26,228 bases of DNA, taken from positions 1 through 26,228 of IMG/VR virus record IMGVR_UViG_3300008217_000072. The stretch is one strand, 5' to 3'. The position numbers were made by a program, and so were the translations under genes. Position 1 is the stretch's first letter. Each line of letters begins with the position of its first letter. Positions 3,912 through 18,034 of this stretch are shown here, one piece after another. The notes under the pieces are model-generated. The model made no database searches, had not been told where the DNA came from, and saw only the letters and a program-made list of their open reading frames with translations. This stretch comes from a virus (Duplodnaviria; Caudoviricetes).

Positions 3912-4484
3912 ATGGCTAAAAAAAAGAATTTTAAAGTTGGGATTGAAGTTCCTCCCTTGGTTGAGCTTGATGATATATCTGATAGCGAACTAAGTTTATT
4001 CGATCCAGGCAACCCAGATATAGCTCTCTTTAATTTAATTGATGATGAAACTATTAAATTATCTGGGTCTAAGATAGAGTATTATAAGTACTTTCAAAAT
4101 TCTGATTTTGATCCCGTCTATATGGAGTCTAGAAATAAGCCTGTAGCAAAAGAGCCTGTTATAGTTTATGGACACTATGAACCACGAGTTCTAGAGGAGA
4201 ACCTTACTCAGTTTGGAATAGAACTTACCAATGATCAGTTCTTTGTATTCAACAAAAGCTACATTGAGCGAGTACTAAAGCGTACCCCTATCCCAGGCGA
4301 TCAGATAAAGCCTAAGTTTCAAAATTGGAAGTGGGAGATCTTTCAAGTACAGGAAGATAGTTTTGAAGCTTATGGTGTATACCACCTAGTATGTTCTGCT
4401 AAGATCCTACGCGATGCTCCAGAAGTACAAGACACTCCTCTTACGGATGTATCTGAAGAGCTTGGGGGCTATACAGAATGGTAA
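3912..4484 (+). CDS. Neck / head-closure protein (T4 gp14-like)
   Basis: ETIKLSG..IEYY, DPVYMES, LTQFGIE, PIPGDQI, WEIFQV; follows gp13. Confidence 0.8.
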   Translation: MAKKKNFKVGIEVPPLVELDDISDSELSLFDPGNPDIALFNLIDDETIKLSGSKIEYYKYFQNSDFDPVYMESRNKPVAKEPVIVYGHYEPRVLEENLTQFGIELTNDQFFVFNKSYIERVLKRTPIPGDQIKPKFQNWKWEIFQVQEDSFEAYGVYHLVCSAKILRDAPEVQDTPLTDVSEELGGYTEW

Positions 4485-7012
4485 GTCTACCTAGACACCG
4501 TGGCATAACTTATGTTCAGGAGAGTGCGGCTTATGGGCACTCTACCTGGATGGATCTTGTTCAGGCTGAGGCTGATTTTGCACAGATGGCCAGTGATGGA
4601 TATAATTCCATAGGATTCTGGGTTAACCCTGGAGATATTATTGAGGTTTGGGATTACACTAATACATCTCCAGCTGATGGAGCCCCTGGTTTTTCTTGTG
4701 GTACATCTTCTTTAAATACTACAGGTATTCATACCCTGTCATCTCTAGTCAGCATGGCAGCATCGGCAGGACTAAGTTCAATAATAAATGTAAAAGGCCC
4801 TAAAAATAGGATGCCATATGGTCCTGTTAGTGCCGATGATGACCTGGGTCCTGGGTCGCCTGGGCATCTGGCTAGGGTAACGGGAACAGATCGCTCACCC
4901 CCTTTCCCTTGGATAGGAGATTGGCATGATAAGTGGGATGAGGGGGGAATATATATGAGTAAAGCTAAGGGTCATTTTTATGATTACGCAGCAGCTTTTA
5001 ATGGAAAGTATCTTGCGGGGGGACACCAACGAAAACTGACAAATTATTGGACTGATAATAATTCGACAGCATCTAATGTTGATTCAGGTAGCTACGATGC
5101 CTTTACTATAGGACCAAACCAAGACCTTATCCAAGGAGGTCCTGGCGTTGGTCATGAGGCTCTTACGGAACGAAATTGGGATGGTTTATATAATGATGAT
5201 TTTATATTATTCTATAAAGCATTTTTAATTGAGTTAGGAAAAATTTTTCAGGACGCAGCCTTAGATATAAATATTTTATATTATAAACTTTCTCAAGAGA
5301 CTCTTATTCCAGACAATCCGTGGGCTTACTATGGATCTTCAATAGCATATAAATTTACTAAGTGGTTGCAGGAAGATCCAGAAGGTTTAATGGGAGCGAA
5401 GACTCACGAAGATCTTGGTGCATCTTCAATAAATCCTACAGGAAAAAATGATCCTAAAGTTATAGATAACTGGTATTATCGTTGGCAAATACTGGGGAAG
5501 GATGGGGCTGCTGGGCTTCGAAATGGTGGGGGTTTATATAATAAATATCCAGAAAGCGTACTAGGGGGTGATGCTATTTATGGGACATCTGGGGAATGGC
5601 AATCGAACACTTTGGGTGCTGTAATTGATTGGGCTGATGACCCAACAGGTGCTCTTTTAGGAGCTTCAGGATTAAAAGATGTTTCTTCTTGGGAAGATTT
5701 TTCTTCAGTTAGTTTTAAAGCTCATGCTAGTGGAGACGAACAAGCTTATAGTTTTAGAGGAGTACCAAAATTTGATGGTATACAGAAGGCTTCATGGAGA
5801 CCTTTTTGGGATCTTATGAATAAATTAGAGTGGTCAATGGCATCAGGACATAATACCACTTTTTTCGATGCAAATGCGGGTGACGAGAATTTAGATGTAT
5901 GGAATATCCCCCATACAGCGAACGGAAATTGGCCAGGATTTACTTCAAGATACCACCAACGAGCAGACTTCTATAGATTTATAACAGCTACTTTAGGGGG
6001 ATACGGAGATGGGGATGTTTATCAATGTTCTGTGTCATCTATGGTTAGTTCAATTAAATTGGGAGATCCTGGGGCAGTAGTAGCAGTTAAGCATTTAAAA
6101 CCAAGATTTTACCAAGATTACTGGGGTTTAGATGAGAAGGACAAGGTACTTGGAGTCAGCGTGGAAACCCCTAGATACGAACGAGCCGACTGGTTATCAA
6201 AAGCCTATGGGGATGTTATCTGTTTGGGATGGTATCCCACTTCATCGGTTGATGGAAATTATTATTGTGATGACGGGGGCACATATATAACTTTTGCTGA
6301 ACATCTACAAGATATTTTAAATTTATCTGGAGAACCCACATGGCACCAACACAGCGATGGGAATAGACCCCTGACCATTTGGGAATGTGGTATGATAAGT
6401 TCGGGAACATTTGCTCCTGAAAAAAACCAGTTTGGAGGTGGGGGTCAAGCGGGTTCTCATAACACTGCTCGTGAGATGCTTGAGCAACTGAGTACTTTTT
6501 GTGATGCCAGTGATGTAGCAGGAATGAATTTATGGGAATCCATTGAACGGTATCCTAAAACAAAACAACTGCTATATTATTGGCAACATATAAATAATGG
6601 TAATGGCATGTGGAGTTCTCAGTCAGGACCGCGAGATAATGAGTACTTTGGTCTTAAATATAAAGGAACAAAATATCCAAAAGATCAATACAATATTTTT
6701 AATGCTTCAGGATTCGTAGAGGCTAGTAGTAACACTGGTGGTACAGATTTTGTTGCTGGAGATAGACTGTATGTTTCTGCTGGGCAGACGGTCAAGTTTA
6801 TCAATCAGGGGGATACCGTTTTCTCAGTAAGTGCTTTAGATACAAGTGGTAATAATGTATTTAAAGCATGGAATACGACCACAGAGGCATATGATACAAG
6901 CGGAAGAAATATACTACCTATAGCTGGAGATATTACTTCTCCCTTTGATCCTTCGTCTGTCTTTACTTACACCTTTCCTACTGATAGTGTATTTACAGTG
7001 AGTGCTACATAA
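4478..7012 (+). CDS. Clan GH-A (GH42/GH5-like) TIM-barrel glycoside hydrolase with C-terminal cupredoxin-like beta domain
   Basis: Ordered motifs: ADFAQMASDGYNSI, LVSMAASAGLSSII, YKLSQE (putative acid/base), FTKWLQE, ADFYRF, IKLGDP, DVICLGWYP, PLTIWECG (putative nucleophile), GMNLWE, EYFGL. C-terminus VSAGQTVKFINQG...FTYTF. Confidence 0.65.
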   Translation: MVSLPRHRGITYVQESAAYGHSTWMDLVQAEADFAQMASDGYNSIGFWVNPGDIIEVWDYTNTSPADGAPGFSCGTSSLNTTGIHTLSSLVSMAASAGLSSIINVKGPKNRMPYGPVSADDDLGPGSPGHLARVTGTDRSPPFPWIGDWHDKWDEGGIYMSKAKGHFYDYAAAFNGKYLAGGHQRKLTNYWTDNNSTASNVDSGSYDAFTIGPNQDLIQGGPGVGHEALTERNWDGLYNDDFILFYKAFLIELGKIFQDAALDINILYYKLSQETLIPDNPWAYYGSSIAYKFTKWLQEDPEGLMGAKTHEDLGASSINPTGKNDPKVIDNWYYRWQILGKDGAAGLRNGGGLYNKYPESVLGGDAIYGTSGEWQSNTLGAVIDWADDPTGALLGASGLKDVSSWEDFSSVSFKAHASGDEQAYSFRGVPKFDGIQKASWRPFWDLMNKLEWSMASGHNTTFFDANAGDENLDVWNIPHTANGNWPGFTSRYHQRADFYRFITATLGGYGDGDVYQCSVSSMVSSIKLGDPGAVVAVKHLKPRFYQDYWGLDEKDKVLGVSVETPRYERADWLSKAYGDVICLGWYPTSSVDGNYYCDDGGTYITFAEHLQDILNLSGEPTWHQHSDGNRPLTIWECGMISSGTFAPEKNQFGGGGQAGSHNTAREMLEQLSTFCDASDVAGMNLWESIERYPKTKQLLYYWQHINNGNGMWSSQSGPRDNEYFGLKYKGTKYPKDQYNIFNASGFVEASSNTGGTDFVAGDRLYVSAGQTVKFINQGDTVFSVSALDTSGNNVFKAWNTTTEAYDTSGRNILPIAGDITSPFDPSSVFTYTFPTDSVFTVSAT

Positions 7013-11149: not shown

Positions 11150-13852
11150 ATGAAATACTTCGAAGAGTTACTTGAGAGTTATCAGCTTTTAAAAAAACGC
11201 CAATTCAAAGTTGATTTAAGGGTTCTTCAAGAACAGGGAGCGGCGGCTCAACAAGCAGGAGGGGCAGAGGCCACAGCCGCAAGTTATGTTAGCCAAGCTG
11301 TAGGTCTTGAAAAAGATCAGGGGATAACAGTAACATCCCCTACGAATAACAATACCTATTTAATTTGGCAAGCCAAAACAGCAGAGAGAATGATTGTTAT
11401 TGAAGGTGAGGGTTTTGGTGGGGCAGGATCACCCAAACGAATAGGAGACGCGAGGGGTAACCCTCTAACTGGAGAACACTATTGGGAAAAATTTGTTAGT
11501 ATGATGGGAGGTGAAGAGGCCGCTGCTCCAGCAGAGGGGGAAGCGGTAGAGGGAGAAGCTGTAGAGGGGGAAGCAGCAGAAGGAGTTCCAGAAATGCCGC
11601 CTCCAGAAGAAATGGGACCACCAATACCTGCACTACAAGCAACAAATCCTGAAGCTTGGAAAAATTTAGCCACAATTAATACTAGACTGGAGAAGGATAA
11701 AGAGAAGGGATCAACTGCAATGTCTAAATGTATTGCAGATGCAGAAGAAGCAATAAGAAAGTATGACGCTGAACAAGCGGCAGGGGCTGCTGAAGGTGAA
11801 AGGCCTCTCCCGTGTAAAGTTCCTGGGTGGGTAACGGGAGGGCACCAACCAGTACTACCTGTACCAGGGAGCATGAGTGAATTCGGTGCGCCTGGGTCGT
11901 TGCACAGTACTATTGCACAAGGACGGGGTTTTAAAATAGTAAATGGAGTTACGGCAGACGGGGTTGCGTATACCAAACTTGAGGAACGGGCTGTATCTAT
12001 GGAGGACCAAACAGCAGCAGCAGAAAGCGCCAAGGTCATATCCGATATGGCAACTGGTGGAGTACCAAACCGAGAAAAATTAGAAGACCTTAAAAGACGC
12101 TTCGCATTTACTGGTACAGGATGTCCTGATGGTGTTGGTTGCAGGATGGTATTGAGAGATCCTAATGATCCTACGGTTGGTATGGTTCTACCCTCTTCCT
12201 CGTATTTGACTTTTCTCGCTGCCGATGCAATGAGACAAGCAGGAGAAACAGCAACCGAAGAAGAGTGGGGAGCGGACGATGATGCCTTTAGGTTCGAAAC
12301 TATAAGATCTTCTTCACCTGATAACCCTCAAAAACTAAATGATTTCCGTGGAAAAACTATGGAATTGGGGCCAGTTCTTTTTTCTATGCTGGCGGTTCAC
12401 AATTCAGCTATGGCGATGGGTGATGTTGAGCTGGCTGGGAGATCTGAGTCTCACATAAAAGAGATATTGGGGACGATACAAGAAGATGAACTTCTTTTGG
12501 ATGCTGCTTTCTCTTACAGTACTCTAATGGACAACGGGGAAATAGGTGTTCCTATTGATAGCTTGGAAGAAATACAACTGGCAGAGGCTATTGTCGCTAT
12601 GGGTGGACACCAGGGCGTACTAAGGAGGCTGGCCCACACACATAGAGAAGCAGTGCTAGTTAGAAAGCCTGAAATAGTATTACCAGTTGGTAAGAGAGTT
12701 GGTTTGGGTTTTGCCACAGATACGGTAGAAGCTTTTGTTGGTCCAGACGCAGAGGTGAAGGCGTTGGAAGCTCTTCGAAGACAGGGCTATGAGGACACTG
12801 ACACTCTTGTTAGCGAACTGAAGGTTGGTTCCATCGCAGACCTCATGGCACAGAACCCTGAAATGTCACAAAGATATATGGATCTTCATGGGTTGTTACC
12901 AGAAGATACGGTTGCATTCTACGAAGTATCGCAGAAAGCTTACATTCAAGACGGACAAACTAAGTCTGGTGAGAGCAGGCCAGACAATGTAAGCAACCTG
13001 TTGTTGGGTAATGGTGGGGATGATGTACACCCAGAATTCCTAGGCAGAATAATGTCTACCTTAGGTATTAGAAATCCAAATGCTATAAGAAGATTTGCTC
13101 AGGAAGACCTGGATCAAAACGAAAGAATAGATTCCCTGCTACCTGACCCTCCCAATGGTAGGAGAAGTGCCGAAGCTCTTACGAGTATGATTCAAACTTC
13201 ATTAACTCAGGACTCAAATTATGATGAACAGCTTGTGGAACCCCTTCTCCAACAAATTAAATCTGCTGATTTAGGAGATAGAAGAGCAGTTAGACAGCTT
13301 AGAACTACAATAAAAAGGAGGTTGGCTTCTGCCAAAATGAATCAAAGGATTGTATCAGGGGATCCTGATGCTATTGATTATGCTAACTCTAGAGCGTTGG
13401 CTATAGGAGGTACTGGTTCTCCTACCATGCTTACTATAGCGCACTTAGAAAGTGGGAAACAGTTTAATTTAGATCAGAATGAGGTTATAGCAGAAGCTGG
13501 TAGAGGTGTTCACGATGGTACATGGAGTATAGAAGCTACCACTACTGGCTATAGGTATATTAACAAAGCTGATGCCAGCCGTACTGTTAAAATTGACGAT
13601 GAAGAAGAGTCTAGAGGAGACGAAAGCTCAGCTGAGGGTAAACATTATAAAGTAAGGTCAGTAGCACGAATATCGGAAACACAATCAAAAGCTCATGACA
13701 GAGATCCTATTGCTGAGACAGGTGTACAACAACTGGCTGCATCTAGAGACTTACTACTACAATTGATGGGTAACCAACAAAGAATTCTGGAGGGGATCCT
13801 TGATGCTATCAGTCGCCCAGCCAGTAAAAATCGTCAGTCTCTAAAAGATTAG
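11150..13852 (+). CDS. 900-aa unknown protein; possible internal head protein with PD-(D/E)xK-like region
   Basis: Long clean ORF; N-terminal L-x-E sites (LLES, LQEQ); acidic low-complexity linker; RGKTME...ATD...EVSQK. Confidence 0.5.
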   Translation: MKYFEELLESYQLLKKRQFKVDLRVLQEQGAAAQQAGGAEATAASYVSQAVGLEKDQGITVTSPTNNNTYLIWQAKTAERMIVIEGEGFGGAGSPKRIGDARGNPLTGEHYWEKFVSMMGGEEAAAPAEGEAVEGEAVEGEAAEGVPEMPPPEEMGPPIPALQATNPEAWKNLATINTRLEKDKEKGSTAMSKCIADAEEAIRKYDAEQAAGAAEGERPLPCKVPGWVTGGHQPVLPVPGSMSEFGAPGSLHSTIAQGRGFKIVNGVTADGVAYTKLEERAVSMEDQTAAAESAKVISDMATGGVPNREKLEDLKRRFAFTGTGCPDGVGCRMVLRDPNDPTVGMVLPSSSYLTFLAADAMRQAGETATEEEWGADDDAFRFETIRSSSPDNPQKLNDFRGKTMELGPVLFSMLAVHNSAMAMGDVELAGRSESHIKEILGTIQEDELLLDAAFSYSTLMDNGEIGVPIDSLEEIQLAEAIVAMGGHQGVLRRLAHTHREAVLVRKPEIVLPVGKRVGLGFATDTVEAFVGPDAEVKALEALRRQGYEDTDTLVSELKVGSIADLMAQNPEMSQRYMDLHGLLPEDTVAFYEVSQKAYIQDGQTKSGESRPDNVSNLLLGNGGDDVHPEFLGRIMSTLGIRNPNAIRRFAQEDLDQNERIDSLLPDPPNGRRSAEALTSMIQTSLTQDSNYDEQLVEPLLQQIKSADLGDRRAVRQLRTTIKRRLASAKMNQRIVSGDPDAIDYANSRALAIGGTGSPTMLTIAHLESGKQFNLDQNEVIAEAGRGVHDGTWSIEATTTGYRYINKADASRTVKIDDEEESRGDESSAEGKHYKVRSVARISETQSKAHDRDPIAETGVQQLAASRDLLLQLMGNQQRILEGILDAISRPASKNRQSLKD
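11533..11583 (+). repeat. Imperfect 15-bp tandem repeat (about 3.4 copies) encoding EGEAV
   Basis: agagggggaagcggt / agagggagaagctgt / agagggggaagcagc / agaagg. Confidence 0.8.
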
Positions 13853-14339: not shown

Positions 14340-14348
14340 CTATAATAG
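14340..14348 (+). promoter_or_regulatory. TATAAT (-10-like) element upstream of ORF 14358
   Basis: CTATAATAG in the 36-bp divergent gap. TATAAT recurs before pol (15388), RNR (20707), SSB (25162) and the 900-aa gene (11127, 11132). Confidence 0.5.
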
Positions 14349-14717: not shown

Positions 14718-15040
14718 TGTCAGACATACAACTTACCTTTTTAGAAAAAGAAAACGACCTGAATAAGGTTCTTCGCAACCAGAAGAAGACTAAGAGCTCT
14801 GCTTCTATATTATTTGTATCCTTGTGGGATAAATGGTGTGGAAGACTAGTTAAGGATCTTAAGGAAAAATATGGGAGCAGCACCGAGGGTCATCAAGTAT
14901 TTATTGTAGATAGTTTTAGAATGCCTCACGCTTTTGTTATCTTTAGATCCACAAAGCTTCCCCATCTTGTTAAGCTACGGAAAGATCGCGTTCATTCCGT
15001 AGACTATCTCCCCCAGATTTACAAGAACTTATCTGTCTAG
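14717..15040 (+). CDS. Thioredoxin-fold protein with degenerate active site (WDKWC)
   Basis: ILFVSLWDKWCGRL matches the F.a.WC..C..l pattern; IVD and the LPHLV cis-Pro-like loop are present; 107 aa. Confidence 0.65.
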   Translation: MSDIQLTFLEKENDLNKVLRNQKKTKSSASILFVSLWDKWCGRLVKDLKEKYGSSTEGHQVFIVDSFRMPHAFVIFRSTKLPHLVKLRKDRVHSVDYLPQIYKNLSV

Positions 15041-15382
15041 TTTAGATTTCTCTTTTTCCCTCTCTGTGTAAGCGTTTATCTTTTGATTATATCTTTTAGC
15101 TTTTGTGAACATAAGTTTTAGATTATTAACTATAACTGTGGTAAAGTAATTGAATGCACTTCCGTGGTTAGGGTCAAAGTTTTTAAGAACCTTAAGCACC
15201 AGTAAGAAACACTCCTGTTTAGCGTCATCCCTATCCAACTTGAAATTAAAGGAAAAGATAATATTCTCTATGAGTAAATCAAACATCCGTACCAGCTCAT
15301 CCTCATTCTTTTTTGGATCTTTCTGGTATAGTTTGATCACCTCTTCGAATCTTTTATTATCTATGTAGAATTTCTTTTCCAT
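15029..15382 (-). CDS. Late-transcription sigma factor (T4 gp55-like)
   Basis: YIDNKRF, ELVRMFDLL, DDAKQE, KNFDP, SAFNYFTTVIVN parallel gp55 motifs. Start set at the ATG at 15382, which avoids overlap with pol. Confidence 0.8.
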   Translation of the reverse strand: MEKKFYIDNKRFEEVIKLYQKDPKKNEDELVRMFDLLIENIIFSFNFKLDRDDAKQECFLLVLKVLKNFDPNHGSAFNYFTTVIVNNLKLMFTKAKRYNQKINAYTEREKEKSKLDR

Positions 15383-15387
15383 CGTTT

Positions 15388-15395
15388 TATAATAG
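15388..15395 (+). promoter_or_regulatory. TATAATAG -10-like element 7 nt before the pol ATG (likely leaderless mRNA)
   Basis: TATAAT at 15388-15393, ATG at 15401, no SD. Confidence 0.5.
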
Positions 15396-15400
15396 ATCAC

Positions 15401-16426
15401 ATGGACCAACTAGAAAGGCTTTATATGGGTGATTCCTGCAATTCTTTGTCAGGTTGTGAGGGGTGCTCCATTTTAGACCAGAACAAACCTTCTTACGCAA
15501 TCATGGATCATGATGAGTTAGACACCGCCAGAGTCCTATTTCTATCAGATTCTGTCCGTTACAAGTACGGTAAGTTTTCAGCATTCTCTGATTTAGAAAT
15601 AAACAAGGTGCTTGCCCCTGCTACATCCTTTATGGATGAGGACGAGTACACCTTTGCAGCGTCAGTTAAGTGTCCTGATGTTAGGGAGGCTGATATGTCC
15701 CCTAATAATATGAATTTATGCAGGGCCTACCTGACGGCGACAATTGACAGGGTTCAGCCTGAGTTGGTTTTGGCTTGTGGTAACTTAGCCATGAAAATGC
15801 TGGTTAAAAAGTCTGGTATAACCTCCAAGAGAGGTAAGTCCTTTGAGTATACTTCGGAACAGGACCATACTTGTGTTGTAGTCCCGGTGTTTCATCCCTT
15901 CTCAGTCCTTAAGGAGCCACGGCACAAAGCTTTATTTGAAATGGATATCCGTAATGCATATAATTTATACATAAAGAAGGACAGCGCCAGACCAGAGTTT
16001 GAGTATAAGTTACTTCTATCCTTTGAGGAACTAGGGGCGTATAACTATCTGTGTACCACCGAAGATACTGTGGCGTGTGATATAGAAACTACTGGTTTAA
16101 ATTTTATTACGGATAAAATTATGACCATAGCTTTGAGTTGTGGTTCGGACAATATAGTTATTCCCATAGATCACAAGGATTCCACGCTACAGGGTGGAGA
16201 AAGATTTGCTGTTTTGAAATGGTTGAGCTTAGTTCTTGGCAATCCTAACAATAAGAAGGTGTTTCACAACAGTAAATTTGATCAAAAGTTTCTTCTTAAC
16301 TATGGTGTTGGGTGTGTGAATGTTTGGGACACTAAGATCATGAGCCACCTAGTGAATGAAAATTTTCCTAAGAGCCTAATGGATTTAGTTAAGATTTATT
16401 TTCCCACAGAACTTGAGAATTTGTAA
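15401..16426 (+). CDS. DNA polymerase A subunit 1: family-4 UDG-like Fe-S domain plus N-terminal part of the 3'-5' exonuclease
   Basis: CEGC, SVKCP..(x14)..C, QPELVLACGNLA, PVFHP; ExoI DIETTG; ExoII HNSKFD; WDT..SHL.NEN...SL.DL. Confidence 0.85.
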   Translation: MDQLERLYMGDSCNSLSGCEGCSILDQNKPSYAIMDHDELDTARVLFLSDSVRYKYGKFSAFSDLEINKVLAPATSFMDEDEYTFAASVKCPDVREADMSPNNMNLCRAYLTATIDRVQPELVLACGNLAMKMLVKKSGITSKRGKSFEYTSEQDHTCVVVPVFHPFSVLKEPRHKALFEMDIRNAYNLYIKKDSARPEFEYKLLLSFEELGAYNYLCTTEDTVACDIETTGLNFITDKIMTIALSCGSDNIVIPIDHKDSTLQGGERFAVLKWLSLVLGNPNNKKVFHNSKFDQKFLLNYGVGCVNVWDTKIMSHLVNENFPKSLMDLVKIYFPTELENL

Positions 16427-16911
16427 TGTTAACAGTAGACAATCCCAAGACATTTAAGTGGAGTGATATTTCTCTAGGTGATTGTGCCGAAGGTAACGCT
16501 ACTGATACTTACTTCACTCTAAAGTTGTTTAACCTATTGGAGGGGCTGTTGGTTGACCTTAAGGCTCACGATCTTTACGATAAATTAATCTCGCCTGTCA
16601 CTGAGGTATTTGCTGGTATGGAGAGGGCTGGTCTTGAAGTTTCCAGGGACCAACTTAGTGTGGTAGGGAGAGAATTAAAGTATAATTGTATTGATTTAGA
16701 GGACGATATTTATGAAACCTCTAGGCTCACAAAAGAAGATAACATATATTCAAATAATGATTTGATGTCTGTATTGTATACCAGAGAAGGAGGGTATGAA
16801 TTGTATCCGCCAGACCTAACTAAGGGAGGCAAGCCTTCTGTGTCTGCACCTACACTTAAGATTTTGTTGGAACAAATAGGAAAAGAATTGAGTAAAAGAA
16901 AAGATGTCTAA
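16426..16911 (+). CDS. DNA polymerase A subunit 2: ExoIII region plus first part of the thumb
   Basis: GNATD (ExoIII-like), FAGMERAGLEV, NIYSNNDL..VLY, TKGGKPSVSAPTL. Confidence 0.85.
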   Translation: MLTVDNPKTFKWSDISLGDCAEGNATDTYFTLKLFNLLEGLLVDLKAHDLYDKLISPVTEVFAGMERAGLEVSRDQLSVVGRELKYNCIDLEDDIYETSRLTKEDNIYSNNDLMSVLYTREGGYELYPPDLTKGGKPSVSAPTLKILLEQIGKELSKRKDV

Positions 16912-18034
16912 GTGGAAGTTCCGCACAGAGAGTAAGAACATTAGTGAGTCTGTCCTGTCTCAGAAATCTACCGAAGACTTGGTGGAGTCCAAGGATTTTC
17001 TTGACAAGATTTTAAGCCTTCGTAAATTGTCTAAGCTTGAGAAGACTTATATAAATGGGACCAGGGCCGCGTTAGACTACAACGGTGTTGATAAGGTATT
17101 TGTAGATTACAGATTTGATGGCACCGCTACTGGTAGATTGTCCTGTGCTATGTATGCCGCTGACCAGCCAATGGGAGTGTCCTTTCACACCCTTCCTAGG
17201 GGAACCGAGAGTAATATACGCTCTATGTTTGTGGCACCAGACGATCACGCCTTCATTACTGTGGACTACAGTACTATGGAGTTAAGGGTACTGGCTAACC
17301 TAGCCAGAGAAACTAAGATGATAGAGGCATTCAAGAGTGGCGACGATCTTCATTCGTACACTGGCAGCTTGCTGTTCGGAAAAGATGTTAGTAGTGTCAC
17401 GAAGACCGAGCGACAGTTGGCAAAGATGGTATCGTTTCTTATTGTATACGGCGGTGGCCCGTTCAATCTTGCTGAAACCACAGGTGTTTCACTTAGAAAG
17501 GCTGAGAGGGTTGTGAGTTCTTACAAGCAGGTTTACCCTAAGATATTTAGGTTTATGGATTATGTCCATGGATTTGTTCAGAAGAACGGTCATGCCTACA
17601 CTATTTTTGGCAGAAGGAGAAACCTTGAGGACATTACTTCTAGGGATAGCACTGTTAAGCATCGAGCTTTAAGGCAAGGTTTCAATTTTGTTATTCAAAG
17701 TACTGCGTCTGATATACTTCTGTTTTCTTTGCTGGGTATCAATAGAGACTTTGAAAAGGCGGGCCTGGAGTCTAGGATTGTCTCTACTGTTCACGACTCC
17801 ATTGAAATCATTAGTCCCCTTGATGAACTAGACAAAAGCAGTATGATTATTTATAATAACATGATTAACTACCCAGTTATCAGGGAGAAATTTGGTATGG
17901 AATTTGAGGTTCCATTCCAGATAGAAACTGTTGTTGGTAAATCATTTGGTGATGGATTAGAAGCTACACATGGTAGTGATGGAAACATTAAAAATATTGA
18001 GGACATTAGAAATTATGTTAACTCTGCTAATTGA
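16904..18034 (+). CDS. DNA polymerase A subunit 3: end of thumb, palm and fingers
   Basis: RKLSKLEKTY, TATGRLS, motif A DYSTMELRVLA, DLH, motif B RQLAKMVSFLIVYG, GRRR, NFVIQSTASD, motif C VHDS. Confidence 0.93.
   Translation: MSKWKFRTESKNISESVLSQKSTEDLVESKDFLDKILSLRKLSKLEKTYINGTRAALDYNGVDKVFVDYRFDGTATGRLSCAMYAADQPMGVSFHTLPRGTESNIRSMFVAPDDHAFITVDYSTMELRVLANLARETKMIEAFKSGDDLHSYTGSLLFGKDVSSVTKTERQLAKMVSFLIVYGGGPFNLAETTGVSLRKAERVVSSYKQVYPKIFRFMDYVHGFVQKNGHAYTIFGRRRNLEDITSRDSTVKHRALRQGFNFVIQSTASDILLFSLLGINRDFEKAGLESRIVSTVHDSIEIISPLDELDKSSMIIYNNMINYPVIREKFGMEFEVPFQIETVVGKSFGDGLEATHGSDGNIKNIEDIRNYVNSAN

Follow-up and report, generated by a model that had tools for sequence, protein, structure and literature searches.

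The window, which is the whole stretch of 26,228 nucleotides of phage DNA that was analyzed, encodes a family A DNA polymerase (PolA) in three conserved genes. The three proteins most likely assemble non-covalently into an enzyme that combines a UDG-like domain with a Klenow-type polymerase and that is likely the replicase of the genome, a reading that we hold with considerable confidence. The split is real and lineage-wide. By the domain content of its translated sequence, the enzyme is classified as a UDG-PolA.

Organization of the Three Genes

The three genes abut on the plus strand as ORF1 (15401..16426; subunit A, 341 residues), ORF2 (16426..16911; subunit B, 161 residues), and ORF3 (16904..18034; subunit C, 376 residues). 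ORF1 and ORF2 meet at TAATG (junction 1, 16424..16428, + strand), within the loop between ExoII and ExoIII that serves as an insertion slot in relatives. ORF2 and ORF3 meet at ATGTCTAA (junction 2, 16904..16911, + strand), a cut at the tip of the thumb between two added helices. These ORFs, both junction sequences, the in-frame TGA stops at 16414 and 16889, and the order of the polymerase motifs across the three genes are as an earlier note on this DNA had described. That note had overlooked two features, the N-terminal family-4-UDG-like domain of ORF1 and a Tyr-to-Gly change in ExoIII.

The UDG-like domain of ORF1 was located by comparison of structure and sequence (about residues 19-190; 15455..15970, + strand). 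It is followed by ExoI (D227 and E229; 16079..16090, + strand) and ExoII (N290 and D294; 16265..16282, + strand), both of which are invariant in 50/50 rows. The Pfam matches of ORF1 are UDG at residues 77-176 and DNA_pol_A_exo1 at residues 221-337, and its best Foldseek matches are the phiLo UDG-PolA (9qhs) and a family 4 UDG (4zby). ORF2 has no match in Pfam; its profile aligns with residues 160-291 of the Klenow chain (E = 6e-8), and the alignment spans ExoIII and the thumb. ORF2 holds the ExoIII helix, a linker, and most of the thumb as far as an extended helix, H2. Its ExoIII segment (16492..16506, + strand) reads G23-N-A-x-D27, with Gly aligned to the ExoIII Tyr of Klenow.

ORF3 consists of an N-terminal extension of ~28 residues, the last thumb helix, the palm, and the fingers. 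It matches DNA_pol_A (PF00476) with an E value of 9e-74 and contains motif A (17264-17287), motif B (17411-17452), and motif C (17792-17800), all on the plus strand, with the catalytic Asp residues of family A. Residues D121, R170, K174, F178, Y182, H297, and D298 are invariant in 47 aligned rows, and conservation in the alignment further delineates a family motif, GVSFHTLPR (17174-17200, + strand). In a subclade of 12 of 175 loci (L253, L265, L269, and relatives), motif A reads D-M-K or D-K-K instead of D-Y/F-S, so that the residues beside the catalytic Asp are altered.

Distribution of the Split

The survey took the best 80 loci per scan, with the motif scan run over 28 of 64 parts, and yielded 182 distinct loci (all those fetched, up to L371) that match both the ORF2 and the ORF3 profiles. 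These loci are mutually related, so the counts that follow are not independent events. ORF2 and ORF3 are split in 159 of the 182 loci and fused in 23, and no fusion of ORF1 to ORF2 was found among the 157 surveyed loci with an ORF1 match. On the question of whether homologues share both split points, the first cut is found in all 157 loci with an ORF1 match, and the second is absent from the 23 fused loci. None of these 157 loci encodes the polymerase as one continuous ORF.

ORF2 belongs to 399 homologous clusters (90% identity, within the searched length range), of which the best 120 measure 158-168 residues. When no length limit was applied, the best 150 matches to the ORF2 profile comprised 62 stand-alone ORF2-like proteins, 7 fusions of ORF2 and ORF3 that begin with MLT, 62 short or fragmentary sequences, and 19 long sequences without an MLT start. 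Of these 19, one alone, P0250, bears the family motif, and at 525 residues it is not a full-length chain. Word searches for longer forms, capped at about 8000 candidates and therefore weak evidence of absence, returned two-part forms and distant PolAs and no close single-chain relative, and no close relative was found among the INPHARED phages. At 50% identity, the family is represented by 124 sequences that match the ORF2 profile with E up to 1e-10; a few of these are unrelated single chains. For the motif counts, 7 of the 182 rows without an MLT-type start were excluded, which left 175 loci. ORF2 begins with MLT in 174 of these preselected loci, and the final residue of ORF1 is L, F, Y, or I in 148 of 150 loci.

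A few loci depart from these patterns. In L257, subunits B and C are fused through 2 extra bases, and they are split in the near-identical L271; P0260 is a singleton fragment of 141 residues that is fused across junction 1 and broken at both ends. Each of the two could be a sequence error. The ORF2 of a single locus, L244, is interrupted mid-gene by a change of frame, which is likely an assembly error.

Junction 1

The two genes abut at junction 1 in 78 of 150 loci and are separated by an insert in the remaining 72, with inserts in all three frames. The inserts span about 170-2500 bp and consist of ordinary genes on either strand, often the opposite one. Eight were scanned with Pfam, and the three that could be named are a glutamine synthetase, a glycosyltransferase, and a 2OG-Fe oxygenase. 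A glutamine synthetase-like gene lies between ORF1 and a fused ORF2+3 in L164-L167, L169, and L171 (Pfam-confirmed for L164). The inserts of L014, L053, L098, L106, L132, and L161 are arrays of opposite-strand Lys/Arg-rich ORFs, many with an N-terminus resembling MN-x-Y-x-R-I, and these may make up a family of proteins that bind DNA or lie inside the virion.

ORF1 ends at an unchanged position whether or not an insert follows, and the junction is a clean nick with no net gain of residues. Between the last conserved helix and the position of the ExoIII Tyr the window has 34 residues, phi18 has 37, and the bacterial PolI fragment P0259 has 35. By count, the last residue of ORF1 presumably falls at or near Phe473 (E. 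coli numbering), an aromatic side chain against which the 3'-terminal base is stacked; in the phage single chains that aromatic residue lies two places earlier than the count predicts. When ORF1 was folded alone, the model was confident except at both ends, with the pLDDT falling from 58 to 30 over the last 30 residues. In the proposed trimer, this low-confidence end should be the place where the helix of subunit B packs, but it could also be ordinary terminal disorder. A Shine-Dalgarno (SD)-like word precedes the ORF2 start in 46 of the 78 abutting loci, compared with 17% of internal ATG/GTG codons.

Junction 2 and the Thumb

The offset between ORF2 and ORF3 is -8 in 88, -4 in 43, -1 in 6, and another value in 20 of 157 split loci (the 159 less 2 without the anchor motif). 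Relative to ORF2, ORF3 is in frame +1 in 101, in frame -1 in 48, and in the same frame in 3 of 152 loci. In L261/L327, a nucleotide-kinase-like gene occupies the junction as an insert of 504 bp. An ATG, GTG, or TTG codon is found at the expected place in 157 of 157 split loci and is preceded by an SD-like word in 115 of them, versus 294 of 1750 internal ATG/GTG codons. At both junctions the SD strength exceeds that after synonymous recoding, with 0 of 200 null sets reaching it.

From the PS motif of the thumb to TGRL there are 100 residues in the window, 66-70 in 21 of the 23 fused relatives, and 58 in phi18. The extra segment thus amounts to about 33 residues against the short fused relatives and 42 against phi18, in line with the ~30 additional, probably helical residues noticed earlier. 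L313 is a natural fusion of B and C that keeps this segment (563 residues, 3 cluster members). Its model, which is not that of the window's trimer, has a pLDDT of 89.6 and a PolA fold with a TM score of about 0.7 to Bst Pol I. It places two added helices at residues 149-168 and 183-197, with the cut site in the loop that joins them; part of the segment is covered by a shallow alignment. The ORF3 extension was considered as a duplicate of helix H2 and found no profile support.

Exonuclease and UDG Sites

The four exonuclease carboxylates, D227, E229, and D294 of ORF1 and D27 of ORF2, are invariant in the alignments. The sequences strongly support a proofreading site whose acidic residues are spread over two chains, three on ORF1 and the fourth on ORF2, and to this extent a site built of two polypeptides, as previously proposed, is upheld. 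Gly takes the place of the ExoIII Tyr in each of the 175 loci counted, also in the two-part forms, and the YxxxD pattern of the DEDDy exonucleases is therefore absent; single-chain phi18, SP-10, P0242, and P0247 retain the Tyr. With the loss of this residue, proofreading may be weak or altered.

Within the UDG-like domain, Cys19, Cys22, Cys91, Cys107, Asp50, Phe62, and His165 are conserved, and the Asn before VKC is replaced. In the catalytic site, Asp50 occupies the position of the Glu and both Phe62 and His165 are kept; the Gly/Pro residues around the Glu are lost. Both motifs that hold the four cysteines are found in 93 of 113 three-part forms under a strict pattern and are absent from 17 of 19 two-part forms.

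Translation and Alternative Explanations

It is nearly certain that the three genes are translated separately. As an alternative, programmed frameshifting or a ribosomal bypass could yield one chain: the ORFs abut in the window, 43 of the 99 first-set loci have a -1 overlap at junction 1, and this junction costs almost no residues, so that a joined chain would be plausible there. However, the junction 1 inserts reach 2.5 kb and occur in every frame, and junction 2 is found in two frames and with the 504-bp insert. Heptamers of the form X-XXY-YYZ occur at 0 of 26 and 1 of 47 junctions. In the window, each start is preceded by an in-frame stop at a distance of 3-4 codons, and neither a fixed frame offset nor a conserved shift site was found. 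We consider a single chain of this kind very unlikely. The pieces could also be rejoined by splicing, either of protein through split inteins or of RNA through introns. Phages are known to carry fractured genes that have split inteins and gene insertions (PMC2677866), and the junctions reported here likewise draw inserts. Nevertheless, HN-C/S/T occurs near the N-termini in 2 of 157 split loci, Rfam gave no match in 9 sources (the window and 8 insert-bearing loci), and the unchanged ORF1 stop is the same whether an insert is present or not. Intein halves were not found at the facing ends, and Pfam shows no intein domain in ORF1, ORF2, or ORF3, as had been stated before; junction 1 has gained zero residues and junction 2 about 33, too few for an intein. 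Splicing is thus exceedingly unlikely. Taken together, the varied frames and the inserted genes at both junctions do not fit frameshifting, bypass, inteins, or introns.

The window is a single metagenomic contig, and an assembly error or a decaying pseudogene might for that reason be suspected. The junctions are, however, free of indels in contigs (not raw reads) from 4 other runs of 4 studies, all marine or aquatic metagenomes and none of them marked as a candidate source of the window. These independent assemblies bridge junction 1 in 3 of the 4 runs and junction 2 in 3 of the 4, and one contig piece of 2471 bases covers both with zero differences from the window. The ORF2 protein is recorded on 30 contigs. 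The median dN/dS values are 0.07 for ORF1, 0.05 for ORF2, and 0.06 for ORF3 (12, 13, and 14 estimable of 19 pairs), with maxima of 0.47, 0.30, and 0.16, respectively, in the least diverged pair; by these sequence comparisons, all three genes are judged to be under purifying selection. In 5 of 5 related records, two of which are 99-100% complete, there is one PolA match each and no PolB or DnaE. The split is not an assembly artifact, and this explanation has practically no chance of being right. A further alternative accepts the trimer as a polymerase and holds that its exonuclease does not proofread as usual, the contact between A and B being mainly structural or subunit A acting also as a UDG-like or DNA-binding protein alone. 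The Gly in 175 of 175 loci, the frequent separation of A from B by other genes, and the altered UDG pocket speak for it; the invariance of all four carboxylates, expected only if metal binding is kept, speaks against it, and we regard it as unlikely.

The separate products of the earlier note's translationally coupled heterotrimer are borne out by the relatives, whereas coupling does not hold as a rule, since the 72 of 150 loci with junction 1 inserts make it optional. Neither of the window's own junctions has a GGAG, GAGG, or AGGA word, and re-initiation after the overlapping stop is therefore the likely route in the window.

The near-palindromic motif TATNATAG lies directly before the start of ORF1 (15388..15395, no strand assigned), between a divergent sigma-like gene and ORF1, and a second copy is found in the window at 14341-14348. 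The motif occurs 0-7 nt ahead of start codons at divergent gene pairs. It precedes ORF1 in most relatives, and it precedes ORF2 where an opposite-strand insert is present. From these positions, TATNATAG may be a phage promoter, possibly one that yields leaderless mRNA. It is not a general marker of starts in the genome G002, where an ATG lies within 12 nt at 10 of 41 sites.

Proposed Assembly and History

Assembly of the three proteins into an active heterotrimer is likely. Subunit A would contribute the UDG-like domain and the three carboxylates of ExoI and ExoII, subunit B the fourth carboxylate in ExoIII and most of the thumb, and subunit C the last thumb helix, the palm, and the fingers. 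The ExoIII helix of B would dock onto A and complete the proofreading site, and the extended C-terminal helix of B would pack against the N-terminal helix of C and stabilize the broken thumb. In the window, the overlapping stop and start codons would couple translation, and relatives with inserts would express B independently.

Every member examined has the cut at junction 1. The family forms one clade apart from the single-chain rows, on a long branch with an SH-aLRT of 100 (a quick tree with 7 outgroup rows). For junction 2, quick trees show one large clade of split forms, another clade of mostly fused forms, and fused branches that lie deep; L297, which is split and has a similar extension, is nested among fused forms in the quick trees of all three ORFs. 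A single clade of all split rows is rejected by the AU test (p = 0.001), and a single clade of the short fused rows, a group picked after the tree had been seen, is borderline (p = 0.044). The nesting of L297 and this rejection point to a thumb cut that arose twice, was transferred by recombination, or was undone several times. We infer that the whole family inherited the exonuclease cut from its ancestor and that the thumb cut was probably gained or reversed more than once.

The cuts might also be functional in themselves, with the free termini at junction 1 replacing the ExoIII Tyr and the helices at junction 2 forming a thumb clasp that can be opened, a reading that we consider rather doubtful. 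The MLT start and the hydrophobic or aromatic last residue would then lie in the loop where the 3'-terminal base is normally bound, and an exonuclease site made of free termini would explain why junction 1 is not re-fused. If so, the clasp would supply processivity in phages without a recognized sliding clamp, and by expressing subunit A separately the phage could adjust its proofreading and uracil repair.

Comparison with Known Polymerases

The three-part PolA is apparently unpublished; none was found in a literature search of mostly open-access main texts, whose supplements could list members. The nearest published counterpart is a fission into two genes, exonuclease and polymerase, which Czernecki et al. 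2023 (PMC10201439) report for the S-SBP1-like phages as the first split among PolAs. Together with the two-part members of the present family, it shows that PolA, which the earlier note took to be normally one chain, is not always so; the window's polymerase and its split relatives likewise are not single polypeptides. As far as that text describes it, the S-SBP1-like split shares with ours a fission into overlapping ORFs that are predicted to reassemble without an intein or a frameshift. It belongs to a T7-like lineage and falls between the exonuclease and polymerase domains; here there are three genes of a UDG-PolA lineage, with cuts inside the exonuclease and the thumb and with insertion slots.

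The UDG-exo-pol order of domains is that of the SPO1-like, SP15-like, and N4-like UDG-PolAs, as given in parts of PMC10201439 and PMC13697223, and places the window's enzyme in the same class. Its best phage BLAST matches are SPO1-like (about 34% identity), and its best structural match is the phiLo polymerase. Those enzymes are described in the same parts as single chains with the ExoIII Tyr, whereas the window family is a separate long-branch clade that carries GVSFHTLPR and does not cluster with the SPO1-like polymerases. The SP15-like UDG-PolAs are single-chain, and the word "split" is absent from the main text of PMC13697223. In CCPol-MP of staphylococcal elements, the polymerase chain keeps only the last exonuclease helices and a partner binds there, according to the portion of PMC10201439 that treats it. 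Subunit B would likewise bind a partner at this place; MP, however, is not the missing piece of the exonuclease, and no exonuclease is rebuilt.

Split PolAs are not mentioned in the accessible portion of PMC11348598, and those of PMC10547690, PMC4611503, and PMC2993671 hold nothing direct on them. Two SAG myoviruses of PMC4611503 were not equated with the present group, since they are listed there with gp43. The gp23-type jumbo phages have family B polymerases in the part of PMC7824862 that covers them. The window itself belongs to a phage whose gp23, sheath, tube, and gp15 genes are T4-like, and its polymerase is flanked by SbcCD-like, DnaB-like, SSB, and ribonucleotide reductase genes. These phages combine a T4-like virion module with a PolA replication module. 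In some T4-related phages of Aeromonas and Acinetobacter, the family B polymerase is split into gp43A and gp43B, with insertions between the genes, and this two-chain enzyme is clamp-dependent. The likeness is that of a replicative polymerase in separate genes; the polymerases differ in family (B versus A) and in the number of chains (two versus three).

These results add a three-chain form to the one- and two-chain family A polymerases, and its active site would be shared between chains. The one-cut, two-cut, and long-fused natural relatives form a series in which to study how an essential replicase withstands being divided, and the cut points are natural split sites for the engineering of split polymerases. 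Because ORF2 has no Pfam match, marker surveys of polA would see fragments, and this large group of uncultured marine phages is easy to miss.

Genome Context

A PHROGs scan of G002 (126 of 127 ORFs of at least 90 residues) identified a primase, a DnaB-like helicase, SSB, a UvsX-like recombinase, and SbcC. No sliding clamp family was matched in these 126 ORFs, a result that a diverged clamp could escape, and the sole clamp-loader match is secondary to an ATP-dependent protease. G002 (L376:4284-19416) has a sugar-modification cluster of glycosyltransferases, epimerases, an aminotransferase, and radical SAM, whose products could modify DNA or the virion surface, and two dCMP-deaminase-like genes are found elsewhere in the genome.

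The sole match among GTDB genomes is L374, an ORF3 of the three-part type with 60% identity, which lies on a contig of 130.6 kb in a record titled Prochlorococcus sp. This is a weak hint of Prochlorococcus as the host, since adsorption or contamination could also account for the presence of the phage. The divergent gene beside ORF1 (15029-15409, - strand) encodes a sigma-70 region 2 protein of about 117-126 residues, which is also next to ORF1 in relatives with ~60% identity and may be a minimal late sigma factor. Two large ORFs of the window have no Pfam match, one of 844 residues (4478-7012, + strand) and one of 900 residues (11150-13852, + strand). The latter is found in a conserved place following the tail tube gene, and its sequence is highly variable between relatives.
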